IMG/VR virus record: IMGVR_UViG_3300025724_000001
Location: 32,001-96,000 of that record
Origin: a virus
Taxonomy: Duplodnaviria; Caudoviricetes
Length of the DNA stretch: 64,000 nt
Direction: 5' to 3' (one strand)
The position numbers and the translations under genes were made by a program. This document shows positions 9,888-54,598 of this stretch, piece after piece; positions within the stretch are counted from its first letter, which is position 1; every line of letters starts with the position of its first letter. Below the pieces are notes generated by a model. It saw nothing but the letters and a program-made list of their open reading frames with translations, was not told the DNA's origin and made no database searches.

Positions 9888-10075
9888 TTGTTTTAGAAAA
9901 TAAAATAGTCAAAATAAACGATATTAATCACTATGAATATAGGGCGGGCTATTTTTTAACATTGGAATTGTTAAAAAAATTAGTCAGAGATTTTCAGATA
10001 GATTGCGTAAATAGTTTTGTTAGTAATGATGAAACATATATTGAACAATGGTTGAAAAATAATAAAATTGAATGA
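9875..10075 (+). CDS. Hypothetical protein (start may be 9884)
   Basis: Overlapping operon-style ORF. Confidence 0.6.
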   Translation: MVYMIVLENKIVKINDINHYEYRAGYFLTLELLKKLVRDFQIDCVNSFVSNDETYIEQWLKNNKIE

Positions 10076-10439
10076 GGATATTGGAATGTCTAATAGAAAC
10101 AAATTAATTCGTGCTATAGAAACTGCTCATCCAAAACTTAAAGAAGAAATTATGTATCATCTTGAAAATGTTGATCATGGACAAGATGAGGGTAAAAACT
10201 TGGATTATGATATAGTTAATGCGTTTGAGGATGCTATGGATACTATAGAAGATAATGATGAGTTTAAGGACTTAATACCACATTTAAAAAATTTATTTAT
10301 TAAAATTGGCTATGCTATTCCAATATCTAAAGAAGTTTTTTCTAGAACAGTAGTAACATCAGGAAAGAAATATTGGTTTAAAAGAAATGGAATTTATTAT
10401 GATGTTGCTGATTCTTGGGAAAATTGGTTGAAACAATAA
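10068..10439 (+). CDS. Hypothetical protein
   Basis: Clean ORF ending just before a terminator. Confidence 0.7.
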   Translation: MNEDIGMSNRNKLIRAIETAHPKLKEEIMYHLENVDHGQDEGKNLDYDIVNAFEDAMDTIEDNDEFKDLIPHLKNLFIKIGYAIPISKEVFSRTVVTSGKKYWFKRNGIYYDVADSWENWLKQ

Positions 10440-10469
10440 GAATAATTCATATATATTACGTTCATTTTG

Positions 10470-10498
10470 AATCGCGATAATTTCGCGATTTTTTTTTT
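10470..10498 (+). terminator. Intrinsic terminator
   Basis: AATCGCGA-taatt-TCGCGATT followed by a T run. Confidence 0.85.
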
Positions 10499-31869: not shown

Positions 31870-34800
31870 TGGCACGTTACAAAGTACCTAGTCAAGCCGC
31901 AAGCGGCGCGGATTCATTTAGTGACGATTTAGTTGGTCGTCAAATTACCGAAGGTTCAAGCCTAATGACAGGTACTAATTTTATTATTGAAAAAACTATA
32001 CCTGAACGTAATACTAAAGAATTTCGAACACAACCATTTTCTGATTTTTTAACACTTGATGATATTGTTGACGAAAAGCATGTTATTGAGGATTTTGATA
32101 ACACAAAAAAAGAAATCAAATTTAATAATGACAAAAAGAATGCAGATCGTTCACTTTATGGTTCATTAAAACAGAGAATTAGGGTCGCTATTAATAATAT
32201 TATTTCTAAGTATCCGGCAGCAATACAGGTTAATTCAACATTTATTGGTGGTGTTAATTATACTGCAGAGAATATAGTATATTCAAGTCAAACAAACACA
32301 ACCGAATTTGATGTTCCATATAAATTAATATATAATCCTTTAGAAATTATATTAAAAACACCAAAAAGTGGTATTTTACCAGAAACAGATAACAATATAC
32401 GTAATTTTTATTCTTCCTTTACAAAGTATGTTATTGATTTAACTGGTGAAACTTTTAATATTATATCGTATTCTGAACCTGATTCAAATAATAGAATAAC
32501 ATTAAGGGTTGATGGTAATTGTTTTAATGGATATTCTGCATTTACCAAAAACTATCTTATTAGGCCAACAGATGGAATTGTTGAAAATTTTTATGAACAA
32601 TTAGATGATCTTGAGCGGGTTTTAATTAATAGAGAAACAAATCCAAAATTTACTGCTGCGTTTAATGTACCAAGGGATAGTAGTGATGGTTCATCAACTG
32701 AAACTGTTACTATAAATGTAAATTGGCCAATATCTAATGACGGTTGGAACATATCAATTGTTGGTTTATTATTTGATTATTATATAGATAAGATAAGTTC
32801 TTTGGCTGATGAAGTCGATAATTATAAATCTAATTTAATTGTTAGATTTTTAACATCACCTCAATTATATGAATTTGATACGGATGATAAAAAAATCGAA
32901 GCCGTTTTCCAAATTTATGGTCGGGCATTTGATAATGTGAAAAAATTTATTGATAACATTGCGTATATGAGAAATGTAAGCTACGATGGTATCAATAATG
33001 TTCCTGATATTTTATTAAAAAACCTAGCTGAAACATTAGGATTATCAACAATAAATTTATTCACTGAAAAAACACTTGAAGAGTCACTTTATACGCGACA
33101 CGACACTCAATATGATGGTGTTTCATTAGGAACTAATTTGATTGAGGCCGAATATGAATTTTATAGAAGAATATTAGTTAATCTGGCGTTTCTTTATAAA
33201 TCAAAAGGAACTAGAACAGCAATTGAATTTTTCTTAAAATTTATTGGTGCACCGGAGCCAATGATTAGATTGGATGAATATGTTTATAAAGTTGATGGAT
33301 CACTTCCATCGCAAACAATCGAAGACGATATTAGAAATGTAATTCAGAGTCAGGTGTCGTCTAGTGTGATGACATGGGATGAAAATCTTTCTGGTTATAC
33401 ATTAACGCGGTTTTCGGGTGAGACGAGATTAACGAGAGACAAATATCCGGTTGATGAAGACACTGGATTTCCAAGAGGTATTGAATATCCTGATGGCTCG
33501 ATGTTTTTTCAAAAAGGTGCGGGGTGGTATAAACGAACACTACATCACAGATCATCAGAGGTGATTGATTATGATAATTCCAATTTAACTGGACGAACCA
33601 AAGTAATTAAAACCAAACCCGCCCCATTTACATATGGGGAAGATTATTTCGATGTTTATAGACAACTTCCAGGATTAAATTATGGGTATTCGTTAGTTTC
33701 CAATGTTGATAATAAAAAAATTGAGTTAGTAGATGATGAGGCAATATCAAGGTTAACATTAAATAGAAAAAATGTTAATGTGTTTTTGTCTGCCGATAGA
33801 GCAATTGATTATGACATATATCGAAAATCCAGAGATTTAATGTTGAATTTTGGTGTGTTAACACCACAAACAGGGGTAACATTTGCTGAATTTTTGAGTA
33901 ATGTAACAAATGACATTATAAGTAATTCCCATGTTGTTAAATATCAGAATACATATGATAGTCTATTGAGAGTATATTGGGCTTATCAGAACCAAATATT
34001 ATTTACACCATATAACTATATTTCGGTAAATGAATTTATTAACAGATTAAGTCCATATTGGGTTGATATTATCGAACAATTTATTCCTGCAACAACATTA
34101 TGGCTGGGTGGAAATTTAATTGAAAATAGTATATTCAATAGATCAAAATACAAACATAAAAGACCAGTGGGGTCGACAGCATATATTGAAGTTTTATATC
34201 CTGATTTTGAAACAGTAATCGTTGAAGATCTAAGAACATTTATAGGCGGTGGAACTGTAGATAATACTAGTTATGAAAGTTATTTTAGGGGTTTAACATC
34301 GTTTTATGGTGTTTCATATACAATTACATTAGAGATTAATGGAACTGTTTATAGTAGACAAACAGGTAATTTAAGAACATTCACTGGATTTACACCGACA
34401 AGTCCGTGTACAAGGTTAACACCAACAACAGAATCAATACCTCTTATATGTGATTATGTGGGAAGTACTTTATTTAGTGAGATTAACGCAATTGAAAATA
34501 TGCGAGATGAGTGGAAAGATATAGTTAATACGTTAGTCGAAGAAATAAGTACCGATGAAAATAGTGAATATACGGTAACTGCAGTGTTTTGCAATACACC
34601 GGATAATGTAGAATACGTCGCATTTACTGTCACACCAAAAGATAACACTCGTATAATCGAATCGTTTGATTATTATTTTACACCATCATATGGCTTATAT
34701 CATGATGAAACCAATATGGAGGCAAGAGTTGAACCTATTAACACATTAATTTTTAGTGGTGATAGTAATTGTGAGTTATATACTGATATTAACATATTAA

Positions 34801-51593: not shown

Positions 51594-52457
51594 ATGAATA
51601 AATTAAAGGAATTATGGAATAAAATTATTAGTTTTTTGTCTCCATATTTGAAAATTTATGGGGTATTTAAATTTTTAACAAGCAAAACATTTTTAATTTT
51701 AATAGTTCTTGTTATTACTGTTTTATTAACTAGATCTTGTGTTAATAATAGGGAAATTCGGAGAATAAATGATATTCAAATACAGAATATCTTAGCTTTA
51801 CTTGATACGATACATGTTGAAAAAAATAAAAATAAAGAGCAACAATTTGTGATTGCTAGTTATGTTACAGATGTTAATAATCTTGAAATTCTTAATAAAG
51901 AACTTTATAATGAGGTGATTGCACAACGTGGTGAAGTAATATCATTAAATAAGGTGATATATCGTTTAGAACAAGAGGCTGATTATTTTAAAAAACAAAT
52001 AAATCATATGGAATCGATTATAAGTCAGCCAGTACAAATAAACGATACCACATATAGAATAACATGGGAGAAGAGGTACGATTGGGATAAATTGAATTAT
52101 GATATATATAGAGGTGAAACAATTGTTGGATTGGGTAAGTTTGGGTTGAGACATTATGATAGTGATATAACATATAGAATATCTCAAGTTGATTTAATGT
52201 TTGGGCAAGTAGTAGAAAATGGTCAATTAAGGATTTTTGTGAAAACAAATTACCCAGGATTTACACCACAATCGTTACAAGGTGTGTTGATTGATCCAAA
52301 TACTAATTCATATATAAAGAGTTTGATTAAGAAGAAAAAATGGTTACCTAATACATTATCTATTGGTGTTGGACCATCATTTGGTTATGATATTTTATCA
52401 ACTAAGATATATTTAGGTATAGGGGTAAATGTAAATTATAATCTCCTACAATGGTAA
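51594..52457 (+). CDS. Putative spanin-like envelope protein (N-terminal TM, coiled coil, C-terminal beta hairpin)
   Basis: TM FLILIVLVITVLL; ends SIGVGPSFGY...YLGIGVNVNYNLLQW. Confidence 0.55.
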   Translation: MNKLKELWNKIISFLSPYLKIYGVFKFLTSKTFLILIVLVITVLLTRSCVNNREIRRINDIQIQNILALLDTIHVEKNKNKEQQFVIASYVTDVNNLEILNKELYNEVIAQRGEVISLNKVIYRLEQEADYFKKQINHMESIISQPVQINDTTYRITWEKRYDWDKLNYDIYRGETIVGLGKFGLRHYDSDITYRISQVDLMFGQVVENGQLRIFVKTNYPGFTPQSLQGVLIDPNTNSYIKSLIKKKKWLPNTLSIGVGPSFGYDILSTKIYLGIGVNVNYNLLQW

Positions 52458-52469
52458 AATTTAAAAATT

Positions 52470-52823
52470 ATGGAACGAACACCACAACAATTTTTTTCTA
52501 AGAATATGAAATGGTTTACTCTTGTGTTTTTTATCCTTTTTCTGTTCAAATCAGTTCAAAGTTGTAATCGGAATATGGGTAATAGAATTATAGAAAAACA
52601 ATATAAACATACTATTGACTCTTTGACAAAAAAATACGATATTTTTGAAAAGGAAACAACAACAATTATTAGACAGCTTGAATTTGAGTTAAAACTTGAA
52701 AAAGAAAAGGCTGGTGAGGCTAATAGACGCGCGGAAGCTGTCCAGTCTGTTGCTGAAAAAATAAGGGCAAATACGACAGTAAATGTTCGCGGTGCCGAAG
52801 TTGATACTACAAAAAGAAAATGA
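52470..52823 (+). CDS. Membrane-anchored/lipoprotein coiled-coil protein (spanin-like)
   Basis: Hydrophobic N-terminus ending VQSC, then coiled coil. Confidence 0.5.
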   Translation: MERTPQQFFSKNMKWFTLVFFILFLFKSVQSCNRNMGNRIIEKQYKHTIDSLTKKYDIFEKETTTIIRQLEFELKLEKEKAGEANRRAEAVQSVAEKIRANTTVNVRGAEVDTTKRK

Positions 52824-53821
52824 AATTATTTAAAAAAAATTACGATAGAGAGGATTTATTACACCTTGGACTTATAGTGACATTTGCCATTTTGTATGTG
52901 GCAACAGCATTTGTTTCATTTTATCATGCAATAACATTTTTTCACATTGCAAATGCTATTTGGTTGTCAATAATATTGAGTTTTGTTGCCGAAATTGGTC
53001 AGGCTTCTGTATTATTTAGTATACTTCTTACAGATAACCGGAATAAATTTCTACCTTGGGTTATAATGATAATTCTAACATCATTACAAGTTATTGGTAA
53101 TGTTGTTAGTTCTTTTGATTGGATTGTAACACATAACGATGCTGGTCTAGAAAATTTTAAAAGATCCATTTTATTTGCAGTACAAACTGATGACCCTGAA
53201 ATGTTCAGAATAATTGTTGCATGGATTTCAGGTGCTCTTCTTCCTGTTATAGCATTATCAATGACGGCACTTGTTGCCCAGAATATAGATTTACGAGCTA
53301 AAAAAAGAAAGGAACTTGAAAGTAAAACATCACCAATAAATGATGTTAATAATCTAGATGACACTGAACCCATACCGGCAAGTGTTATTGTAGGTGAGGT
53401 GTCGAAAATCCGTCCAACAGAGGAAGAACTCGAAAAAATGGAAAAATTTTTAAGTAAGAAAAGTCCGATTGAAAAACCACCAGTTGAAGAAAATGAAAAA
53501 ACAAAAGACAAACCAGTTGTGGTGTCGGATGTACCTTTTGATGAATCAAATTTTAATTCTGATATAATTAATGAAGAAATTGAAGAAGATTTCGGTCCTG
53601 TTGATTTAACAAATGAAAAACCGGATGATGTTCCAACGATAGAATTAGAGAAAGTTGTAACGCCAACAGCACAAGAAGTTATAGAATCAACAATTTCTAA
53701 AGAACAGGAATCTCCACCACTTATTGAGGAAAAACCACAACCATTACCAACAAATCCAATAACACAAGAACAACTTGATAGAATTAGACAAATTGCTAGA
53801 GAGAATTTAAAAAAAAAATAA
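52820..53821 (+). CDS. Four-TM membrane protein with acidic tail (holin/antiholin candidate); likely -1 frameshift extension to 54018
   Basis: Four hydrophobic segments; ends at TTTAAAAAAAAAATAA; -1 frame open for 66 codons. Confidence 0.6.
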   Translation: MKLFKKNYDREDLLHLGLIVTFAILYVATAFVSFYHAITFFHIANAIWLSIILSFVAEIGQASVLFSILLTDNRNKFLPWVIMIILTSLQVIGNVVSSFDWIVTHNDAGLENFKRSILFAVQTDDPEMFRIIVAWISGALLPVIALSMTALVAQNIDLRAKKRKELESKTSPINDVNNLDDTEPIPASVIVGEVSKIRPTEEELEKMEKFLSKKSPIEKPPVEENEKTKDKPVVVSDVPFDESNFNSDIINEEIEEDFGPVDLTNEKPDDVPTIELEKVVTPTAQEVIESTISKEQESPPLIEEKPQPLPTNPITQEQLDRIRQIARENLKKK

Positions 53822-53880
53822 CAGAGGTAGAAGAGGAGATAGAAGAAACGTTTACATCTGGTGATATCCTAACAGATAAC

Positions 53881-53916
53881 ATTCCCGAACCAACACCGTC
53901 GGCTCGGGAATTTTTT
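53881..53916 (+). terminator. Terminator-like hairpin
   Basis: ATTCCCGA...TCGGGAAT stem followed by a short T run; lies inside the -1 frame extension. Confidence 0.5.
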
Positions 53917-53977
53917 ATGCCTACAGAAAAAGAAAATAAAAAAATAACATATAATTCAGTAAAAAGTTTTTTGAGAG

Positions 53978-54598
53978 ATGTTGCAAGTTCAAAGCGTAGA
54001 AGACCTAGAGGGAGTTAAATTAAATGTTAGTAAGAGAAAAACTAAAAAGACTCAAATTTTTTTATATGACACACAAAGAAGATTTGATGATTTTATTATG
54101 AAATTAAGGTATAGAAATAATGAAAAATATGAAGAAATACCACATTTTATAATAAGTAAGTCAGGTGATATTTTTAAGGTATTTGATACTGATTATAGTT
54201 CAAAAACGTTTGGTGTGAAGAATATTGATAATAGACAAGTAAAGATTGCGTTGGAAAATTTGGGTTGGTTAATTAAAAATACGATTACCGGTGCGTTATA
54301 TAATTGGATAGGTGATCCATATAGGTCTGAGCCATATGTAAAAAGATGGAGAAATTATTATTTCTGGGATCCATATTCTGAAGAGCAAATGAATGCATTG
54401 GTTAAAATAACAAAAGAAATTTGTAAAAAACATAATATACCATATCAAACAGTACCATCACAAGGATATTTATCTAATGTAAGAAAGTTTGATGGAATTG
54501 TATGTAAATCAAATTTTCTAAGTATTTATACAGATATAAACCCTTCTTTTAATTTTAATATATTTTATAAAAATGACACAGAAACAACCGATAAATGA
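53978..54598 (+). CDS. N-acetylmuramoyl-L-alanine amidase (Amidase_2)-like protein, Zn ligands apparently degenerate
   Basis: QIFLYDT, PHFIISKSG, IALENLG, YSEEQ..AL, TDINP. Confidence 0.65.
   Translation: MLQVQSVEDLEGVKLNVSKRKTKKTQIFLYDTQRRFDDFIMKLRYRNNEKYEEIPHFIISKSGDIFKVFDTDYSSKTFGVKNIDNRQVKIALENLGWLIKNTITGALYNWIGDPYRSEPYVKRWRNYYFWDPYSEEQMNALVKITKEICKKHNIPYQTVPSQGYLSNVRKFDGIVCKSNFLSIYTDINPSFNFNIFYKNDTETTDK

Follow-up and report, generated by a model that had tools for sequence, protein, structure and literature searches.

A conserved A-run in a membrane-protein gene of a giant freshwater phage and its relatives as a probable site of programmed transcriptional slippage

We analyzed a 64,000-nucleotide (nt) stretch of DNA (the window), which covers positions 32,001 to 96,000 of the IMG/VR viral record IMGVR_UViG_3300025724_000001. 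The record is 104.7 kb long, has an estimated completeness of 34%, and belongs to an uncultured giant freshwater phage. The element in question is a run of ten A's (A10; 53809-53818) at the 3′ end of a gene encoding a 333-amino acid (aa) membrane protein (52820-53821); all features of this locus lie on the + strand. We consider it probable (about 70%) that programmed transcriptional slippage takes place at this run and gives rise to a short (S), a basic-tailed (T), and a long (L) isoform of the membrane protein. The run, both alternative reading frames, and a hairpin abutting the run are conserved among relatives, and both frames carry coding signatures. The transcriptional level of the slip, the proportions of the isoforms, and a role in the timing of lysis or in the handling of the amidase-like protein that is encoded downstream are inferred.

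The open reading frame (ORF) ends with AAT TTA AAA AAA AAA TAA, and its TAA stop codon (53819-53821) directly abuts the run. According to our proposal, the hybrid in the host RNA polymerase would consist of rA:dT pairs only, the nascent RNA would realign, and a fixed share of the transcripts would contain A9, A11, or A12. Ordinary translation would then lead to three proteins with a common N-terminal domain of four transmembrane (TM) segments and a common acidic tail. The unslipped transcript would encode S, probably the major form in the window's phage, which stops right after three Lys residues. One extra A would lead to L with its 66-residue extension in the −1 frame (frame E; 53818-54018, open to 54015, stop codon at 54016-54018). 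One A fewer or two extra A's would lead to T with a 15-residue basic tail after the Lys run (frame T, the +1 frame; 53817-53864, TGA stop at 53862-53864). By the positive-inside rule, the variable C-termini would be cytoplasmic.

A preliminary description of this DNA had recorded the ORF end, the A10 run, and the open −1 frame of 66 codons, and their coordinates were confirmed from the sequence. The same holds for the extension of the −1 frame to 54018, where it overlaps the start of the amidase-like gene (ATG at 53978) by 41 nt. Over 53818-53977, frame E stayed open in 198 of 20,000 base shuffles (approximately 1%), indicating that its openness is more than chance.

Conservation of the A-run and avoidance elsewhere

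Related loci were retrieved from IMG/VR with the amidase-like protein as a query. This yielded 43 loci (designated by L numbers), many of them on contigs of 200-334 kb, and together with the window 44 junctions. A metagenome set was built from the best 80 of at least 361 loci and provided 62 distinct usable junctions, partly overlapping the IMG/VR set. At the homologous spot, A10 or A11 was present in all 44 junctions of the first set and in all 62 of the second, even though the window's membrane protein shares no more than 23-29% identity with the upstream ORFs of most other loci. Forty-one junctions of the first set were split with frame E at −1 and three were fused; in the second set, 50 were split at −1, 11 were fused, and one was at +1. 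The preliminary description had named homologous phages as the place to look for a conserved slippery site and a −1 ORF. Both were found there, the latter as a coding frame E (see below).

The first A of the run was located at codon position 2 or 3, and the run length was 10 or 11. Since the phase varies while the length is kept, the conserved feature is the length of the run and not a phased heptamer. AAG, which makes up 19.5% of the Lys codons elsewhere, never interrupts the run. In 21,000 other codons of these genes no run of ten or more was present, A-runs stopping at nine, and KKK elsewhere contained AAG in eight of nine cases. The frame that is unslipped in the window stops at most 13 nt after the run in all relatives, fused ones included.

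The avoidance of such runs is genome-wide. Three relatives (93-97% complete, 310-324 kb) contained only one to three A10/T10 runs per genome (the L043 record, 324 kb, one; the L019 record, 311 kb, three; the L028 record, 316 kb, three), compared to the approximately 15-17 expected under an independent-base model with A at 0.364 and T at 0.32. The single run of the L043 record (G002) is the junction described here; the two further runs of the L019 record (G003) lie between genes, one immediately ahead of a start codon. In the 104.7-kb record containing the window, the run at 53809-53818 is the sole A10/T10 run within coding sequence. Thus, A10 runs are otherwise avoided in these phage genomes, which argues that slippage is a real cost to them. 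The other A10/T10 run of the record is the T10 tail of an intergenic intrinsic terminator (window positions 10465-10498; 7-bp GC-containing stem, 5-nt loop) located after the ORF 10068-10439.

Coding signatures in frames E and T

Frame E harbors a conserved 25-codon motif, in which the differences between relatives by codon position were 0.133/0.084/0.311 and thus fell mainly on the third position. In 17 of 17 versions of this motif, the other two frames hold stop codons. The ratio of nonsynonymous to synonymous substitution rates (dN/dS) over the whole extension (median 0.58) was not informative, since the tail aligns poorly over most of its length; tests at the level of the motif and gap-free tests within clades took its place. 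For the latter, the ratio of nonsynonymous to synonymous differences (pN/pS) was determined in comparisons anchored at the run. Frame T was defined as the frame one base behind E; split loci would reach it by a +1 shift and fused loci with one extra A. In the stretch from the run to the T stop, pN/pS in the first set was 0.35 in T, 1.13 in E, and 1.26 in the remaining frame; between the T stop and the E stop, it was 0.21 in E and 2.94 in T. The second collection gave corresponding values (0.33, 1.10, and 1.19 up to the T stop; beyond it, 0.14 in E and 2.05 in T). This pattern indicates that selection switches frame at the T stop. It points to translation of frame T, the first part of E probably being a tolerant linker.

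The length of frame T supports a coding function. Past the run, T was open for 14-40 codons in 20 of 22 representatives, compared to a median of 4-10 codons under E-codon shuffling, and for at least 45 nt in 60 of the 62 metagenome-set junctions. The window's own T has 15 codons at a shuffle median of 6 (P = 0.115). The T tails are basic and Gly/Asn-rich, and a C-terminal motif recurs in many clades; T was lost in two lineages, L023 and L031. An 18-nt block (53847-53864), which is conserved in L001 and L002, is read in both frames: it encodes the TFTSG(D/E) block of E as well as the last residues of T with their TGA stop.

Frame E of the window keeps the family's N-proximal TFTSGD block and the basic C-terminus, and is devoid of the central YWE..NPNQ motif. 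Among the relatives, E commonly, but not always, runs over the start of the amidase-like gene; it ends 32-41 nt inside this gene, and approximately one locus in five has no overlap. The conserved N-terminus of the amidase-like protein, encoded in the other frame, dictates part of E's basic C-terminus. In L023, L031, L006-L008, and L043, an additional Gly/aromatic block, FSN[VI]GTH[IV]P.., is conserved in frame E shortly after the run. This block resembles parts of the T tails in other clades, suggesting that tail segments move between frames through indels.

A sequencing error or a pseudogene could have split one ORF, or the downstream frames could be independent small genes. A10 runs are indeed error-prone on some sequencing platforms, and an ATG is present in frame E at 53917. 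However, approximately 90 distinct split junctions of different projects have the same offset, both alternative frames show measurable selection, and in the fused relatives both parts form one ORF, with which the predicted post-shift product is colinear and gap-free. Several loci contain no ATG, GTG, or TTG anywhere in frame E, and in others no candidate start codon precedes the conserved motifs. An artefact, gene decay, or separate genes are therefore extremely improbable. Comparative sequence data thus mark the A10 junction as a genuine, conserved recoding site and not an assembly error, and they argue that frame E is translated as a continuation of the membrane protein rather than as a separate gene. 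The preliminary description had foreseen two isoforms through a −1 frameshift or slippage at the run. Both would share the N-terminal membrane domain, and the long one is supported by a coding frame E without its own start in relatives and by the existence of fused ORFs; a third frame under purifying selection and the hairpin 5′ of the run had been missed.

At least 20 distinct public proteins of 474-602 aa correspond to the in-frame fusion. In the fused loci L026, L039, L040, and L053, a single additional T comes after A10; L052 corresponds to the split arrangement with one A added (A11), and in L050 the A10 run has the window's phase. The run is kept in the fused forms, and in most of them the hairpin as well, which is retained in L052 and L053. 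A run that merely repaired a frameshift could have decayed after fusion; its retention therefore speaks against such a role. All three default forms, S, L, and T, occur among the relatives. L058 (JACCDG011310134.1) carries A11 in a clade that is otherwise fused with A10, and its default product would be T; it represents either a third configuration that occurs naturally or an assembly error in the homopolymer.

These single-base variants bear on DNA-level phase variation, in which replication slippage would allow one isoform per genome and assemblies would show the majority allele. Homopolymers are mutable, and both L052 (split plus one A) and L058 (fused plus one A, T default) fit such a scheme. 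In contrast, approximately 80% of the 106 junctions, which come from many samples, share the −1 configuration; most fused forms differ by the extra T after the run and not by run length; and close relatives within clades never differ in run length. Phase variation would also leave unexplained an RNA hairpin with compensatory changes (see below). We regard it as very unlikely.

Structures flanking the run and the mechanism of the shift

In most lineages, a helix of 5-10 bp ends at the base before the first A, and the sequences of its arms differ between clades. Perfect helices of 5 bp or more with their end exactly at the run were present in 17 of 27 and 40 of 62 distinct junctions, compared to 8% of 31,140 control positions taken from the same genes. 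With a minimum of 7 bp, the numbers were 12 of 27 and 34 of 62, compared to 1.3% of the controls. In one sub-family, four of seven pairs were changed on both sides, partly via synonymous codon changes. The covariation score of this hairpin was reached by none of 500 shuffles, and sliding the partner columns destroyed the pairing. In the window, only a weak, AU-only 5-bp inverted repeat was found (53790-53808; 53790-53794 pairs with 53804-53808, 9-nt loop), which ends one base before the run, and no stable structure was predicted there by RNAfold (rank in unconstrained folding). L001 has no hairpin at this place. In the relatives that have it, the nascent-RNA hairpin abutting the run probably assists the slip.

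Ribosomal −1 frameshifting on A_AAA_AAA, helped by the adjacent stop codon, would also lead to L; T would then require a less frequent +1 or −2 shift, or would be absent altogether. Every split locus has the phased A_AAA_AAA in its 0 frame (twice in the window) with the 0-frame stop within 0-2 codons, and A_AAA_AAA and A_AAA_AAG are established −1 sites (PMC3711429). In addition, the window, L001, and L002 have in common an interrupted 9-bp hairpin 3′ of the run (53822-53860 in the window). Its spacing is variable: the conserved block 53847-53864 forms the 3′ arm, and the 5′ arm is at different distances in the three loci. In clades beyond these three, no consistent downstream structure was detected. 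There was no conserved ribosomal 3′ stimulator at a workable spacing, the 70 nt downstream of the run showing a mean z-score of −1.06 and no common position or shape. A general 5′ element resembling a Shine-Dalgarno (SD) sequence was likewise not found; one hairpin type only looks SD-like.

Other features of the family are also difficult to reconcile with a ribosomal shift. Seven A's would suffice for it, yet 106 of 106 junctions in the two partly overlapping sets keep at least ten, and the phase varies. The conserved structure lies 5′ of the run and abuts it, and is no known −1 stimulator. Fused loci need no shift, yet they keep the run and the hairpin, and coding signatures are found in both alternative frames. 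A ribosomal shift is thus an unlikely main explanation, and ribosomal −1 shifting on A_AAA_AAA may contribute. Slippage of the RNA polymerase is favored by the length-conserved run of varying phase, the 5′ hairpin, both alternative frames, the retention of the run in fused genes, and its avoidance genome-wide. Of the −1 shift or slippage assumed in the preliminary description, the recoding thus stands, and slippage of the RNA polymerase is favored over its slippery-heptamer mechanism on the ribosome. In a search that could have overlooked highly divergent phage polymerases, no RNA polymerase family was detected in the three 93-97% complete relatives. This result and the sigma-factor gene directly upstream (see below) are in line with slippage by the host enzyme.

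Several observations weigh against transcriptional slippage. The window and L001 are devoid of a stable 5′ hairpin, and the window's long extension has lost the best-conserved motif of the family; the L isoform may therefore be weakened or altered in this phage. In every locus, A_AAA_AAA would also qualify as a ribosomal −1 heptamer. Related contigs that differ by one base in run length (L052, L058) show that changes at the DNA level occur too. Finally, in the known hairpin-stimulated case, the insertion sequence IS630, the outcome is a one-base deletion (PMC5009743); on an A-run next to a hairpin, the direction and efficiency of slippage may differ.

Inside frame E of the window, a terminator-like stem with a T6 tract is located at 53881-53916 (stem 53881-53911; dG −12.2 kcal/mol) and precedes the in-frame ATG at 53917. 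Its stable, GC-containing stem lies directly before the U tract, as in intrinsic terminators; a simple terminator scanner gave no + strand call at this place, because the stem is interrupted. The preliminary description had linked such a hairpin to anti-termination, through which frameshifting would be coupled to amidase expression. The hairpin is real in the window. As a general mechanism, however, anti-termination was rejected: none of the 33 other distinct loci has a terminator-like element in the interval from the run to the amidase start. The element being unique to the window, the coupling falls outside the conserved device. The stem with its T6 tract occupies the place of the conserved motif that has been lost from the window's E, and transcription into the amidase-like gene may be attenuated by it in a lineage-specific manner.

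Gene neighborhood, known slippage systems, and significance

The membrane protein has four hydrophobic segments at approximately residues 16-41, 46-71, 77-99, and 131-154. A Lys/Arg cluster follows the last of them and precedes a 158-residue acidic, Pro-rich tail. The window's protein matched no Pfam, PHROG, or NCBIfam family. It is homologous to the upstream ORFs of the related loci, with 46-48% identity to L001 and L002 and 23-29% to most others; a few loci gave short local matches only. In relatives, a short TacA1/DUF1778-like motif follows the membrane domain; it corresponds to the C-terminal part of the profile and scored 26-27 bits at a cut-off of 21 (residues 274-318 in L039). In the window, where the protein itself has no Pfam match, the position of this motif is at approximately 53381-53464.

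A sigma-70-type gene is located just upstream of the membrane-protein region of the window, and the gene order sigma factor, membrane protein, amidase-like protein is conserved in relatives; the Amidase_2-like gene adjoins the membrane-protein gene in all loci. Between the sigma-factor and membrane-protein genes, the window contains two extra genes for TM and coiled-coil proteins (51594-52823; 287 and 117 aa). They are absent from L050, L051, and L053, in which the membrane protein has an insert of approximately 120 aa with a coiled coil between hydrophobic segments. The two arrangements may result from the split or merge of one architecture.

The amidase-like gene (53978-54598) encodes a putative amidase-like protein, which matched Pfam Amidase_2 with an E-value of 3.3e-9 and aligned to positions 31-112 of the 131 profile positions only. 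PDB searches with its sequence and with its profile gave no meaningful relative, and its AlphaFold2 model, built from a shallow alignment, was too poor for a fold search (mean predicted local distance difference test [pLDDT] score 47). In cultured phages, the searches gave no DNA match and nothing matching the amidase-like protein. The only distant homologues there are those of the N-terminal TM/coiled-coil domain of the relatives' membrane proteins; all are single ORFs without an A-run. These homologues adjoin wall hydrolases in Pelagibacter phage Mosig and are found among replication genes in XacN1; in Flavobacterium phage immuto, a chitinase and a holin are encoded nearby. The holin/antiholin-like reading of the preliminary description is not directly supported. 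The TM segments, the charged C-terminus, and the position of the gene beside an Amidase_2-like gene would be compatible with it, but the membrane protein is 333-600 aa long and matches no holin family. Holin/antiholin products arise from a dual start and differ at the N-terminus, whereas the isoforms proposed here differ at the C-terminus.

Programmed transcriptional slippage has been documented in a handful of bacterial genes and insertion sequence elements. The phage tail assembly chaperone G/GT is produced as a short and an extended protein by ribosomal −1 slippage on a phased heptamer. Both G/GT and the site described here are conserved phage recoding sites; the latter is characterized by run length and a 5′ hairpin and lies in a membrane-protein gene. 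Our literature search did not reveal any description of programmed transcriptional slippage in a membrane-protein or lysis-region gene of a DNA phage. Polymerase stuttering also feeds three frames in Ebola GP. In paramyxovirus P/V/W, one homopolymer site feeds three frames with distinct C-termini (PMC5009743), as proposed here. These RNA virus cases rely on viral RNA-dependent polymerases and short runs, whereas in a DNA phage the host multisubunit RNA polymerase presumably acts.

Bacterial RNA polymerase slips efficiently on runs of nine A's or T's (PMC5009743). In Citrobacter rodentium tssM1, which has A11, transcripts with 10-15 A's were found, approximately 20-25% of the protein is frameshifted, and two to three length variants are made (Gueguen et al. 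2014, PMC4256274). Like the phage gene, tssM1 and tssM of Yersinia pseudotuberculosis (T6SS-3) encode an inner-membrane protein, have a stop codon near the A-run, and give rise to truncated and full-length forms and possibly a third, short variant; for tssM1, both forms and their ratio matter for function (PMC4256274). tssM1 differs in being a bacterial secretion gene with the run 28 nt before the stop and no adjacent hairpin reported, whereas in the phage gene the run abuts the stop. Furthermore, the phage site shows a third frame under purifying selection, conservation across a deep and large family, and a default frame that changes between lineages.

A nascent-RNA hairpin immediately 5′ of the slip motif, terminator-like but without termination, is described for Roseiflexus IS630 (Penno et al. 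2015, PMC5009743). IS630 uses a T5C5 motif with a GC-rich stem and a specific one-base deletion. By comparison, A10/A11 is able to slip alone, the 5-10 bp stems of the phages are often AT-rich, and the window's stem is marginal. In Thermus thermophilus dnaX (tau/gamma) and in 10-A dnaX genes, a homopolymer of 9-10 likewise leads to two products that share their N-terminus and are made in a set ratio (PMC5009743, PMC3711429). The unslipped dnaX product is the full-length one, as in the fused relatives, and no use of a third frame was seen there. Finally, in Shigella flexneri spa13/spa32, slippage adds a C-terminal extension that overlaps the start of the next gene and affects its expression (Penno et al. 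2006, PMC5009743). The overlap of frame E with the amidase-like gene parallels this case, the likeness lying in the overlap alone.

Gene callers truncate the membrane protein and overlook two of its coding frames. The dual-coding segment illustrates cleanly how selection switches from one frame to another at a stop codon. The family provides more than 100 natural variants of one site, with differences in stem sequence, run length (A10/A11), default frame, and tail content. This series can be used to ask how the rate and direction of slippage depend on the nascent-RNA hairpin together with the homopolymer hybrid. We tentatively suggest, as one possibility among others, a three-way C-terminal switch: stuttering of the RNA polymerase would set fixed proportions of the tail-less S, of T with its basic, Gly-rich tail, and of L with a long tail that carries a conserved motif, single-base indels beside the run would retune the default form, and the mix might control the timing or mode of action of the neighboring amidase-like protein at the membrane, e.g., by tethering or through lysis timing. 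Such a switch, if true, would be a counterpart of the dual-start holin/antiholin clock that acts at the C-terminus and at the level of transcription. Regulation of the adjacent amidase-like protein by the isoforms, if it takes place, would represent a new way for phages to time or localize their attack on the cell wall.

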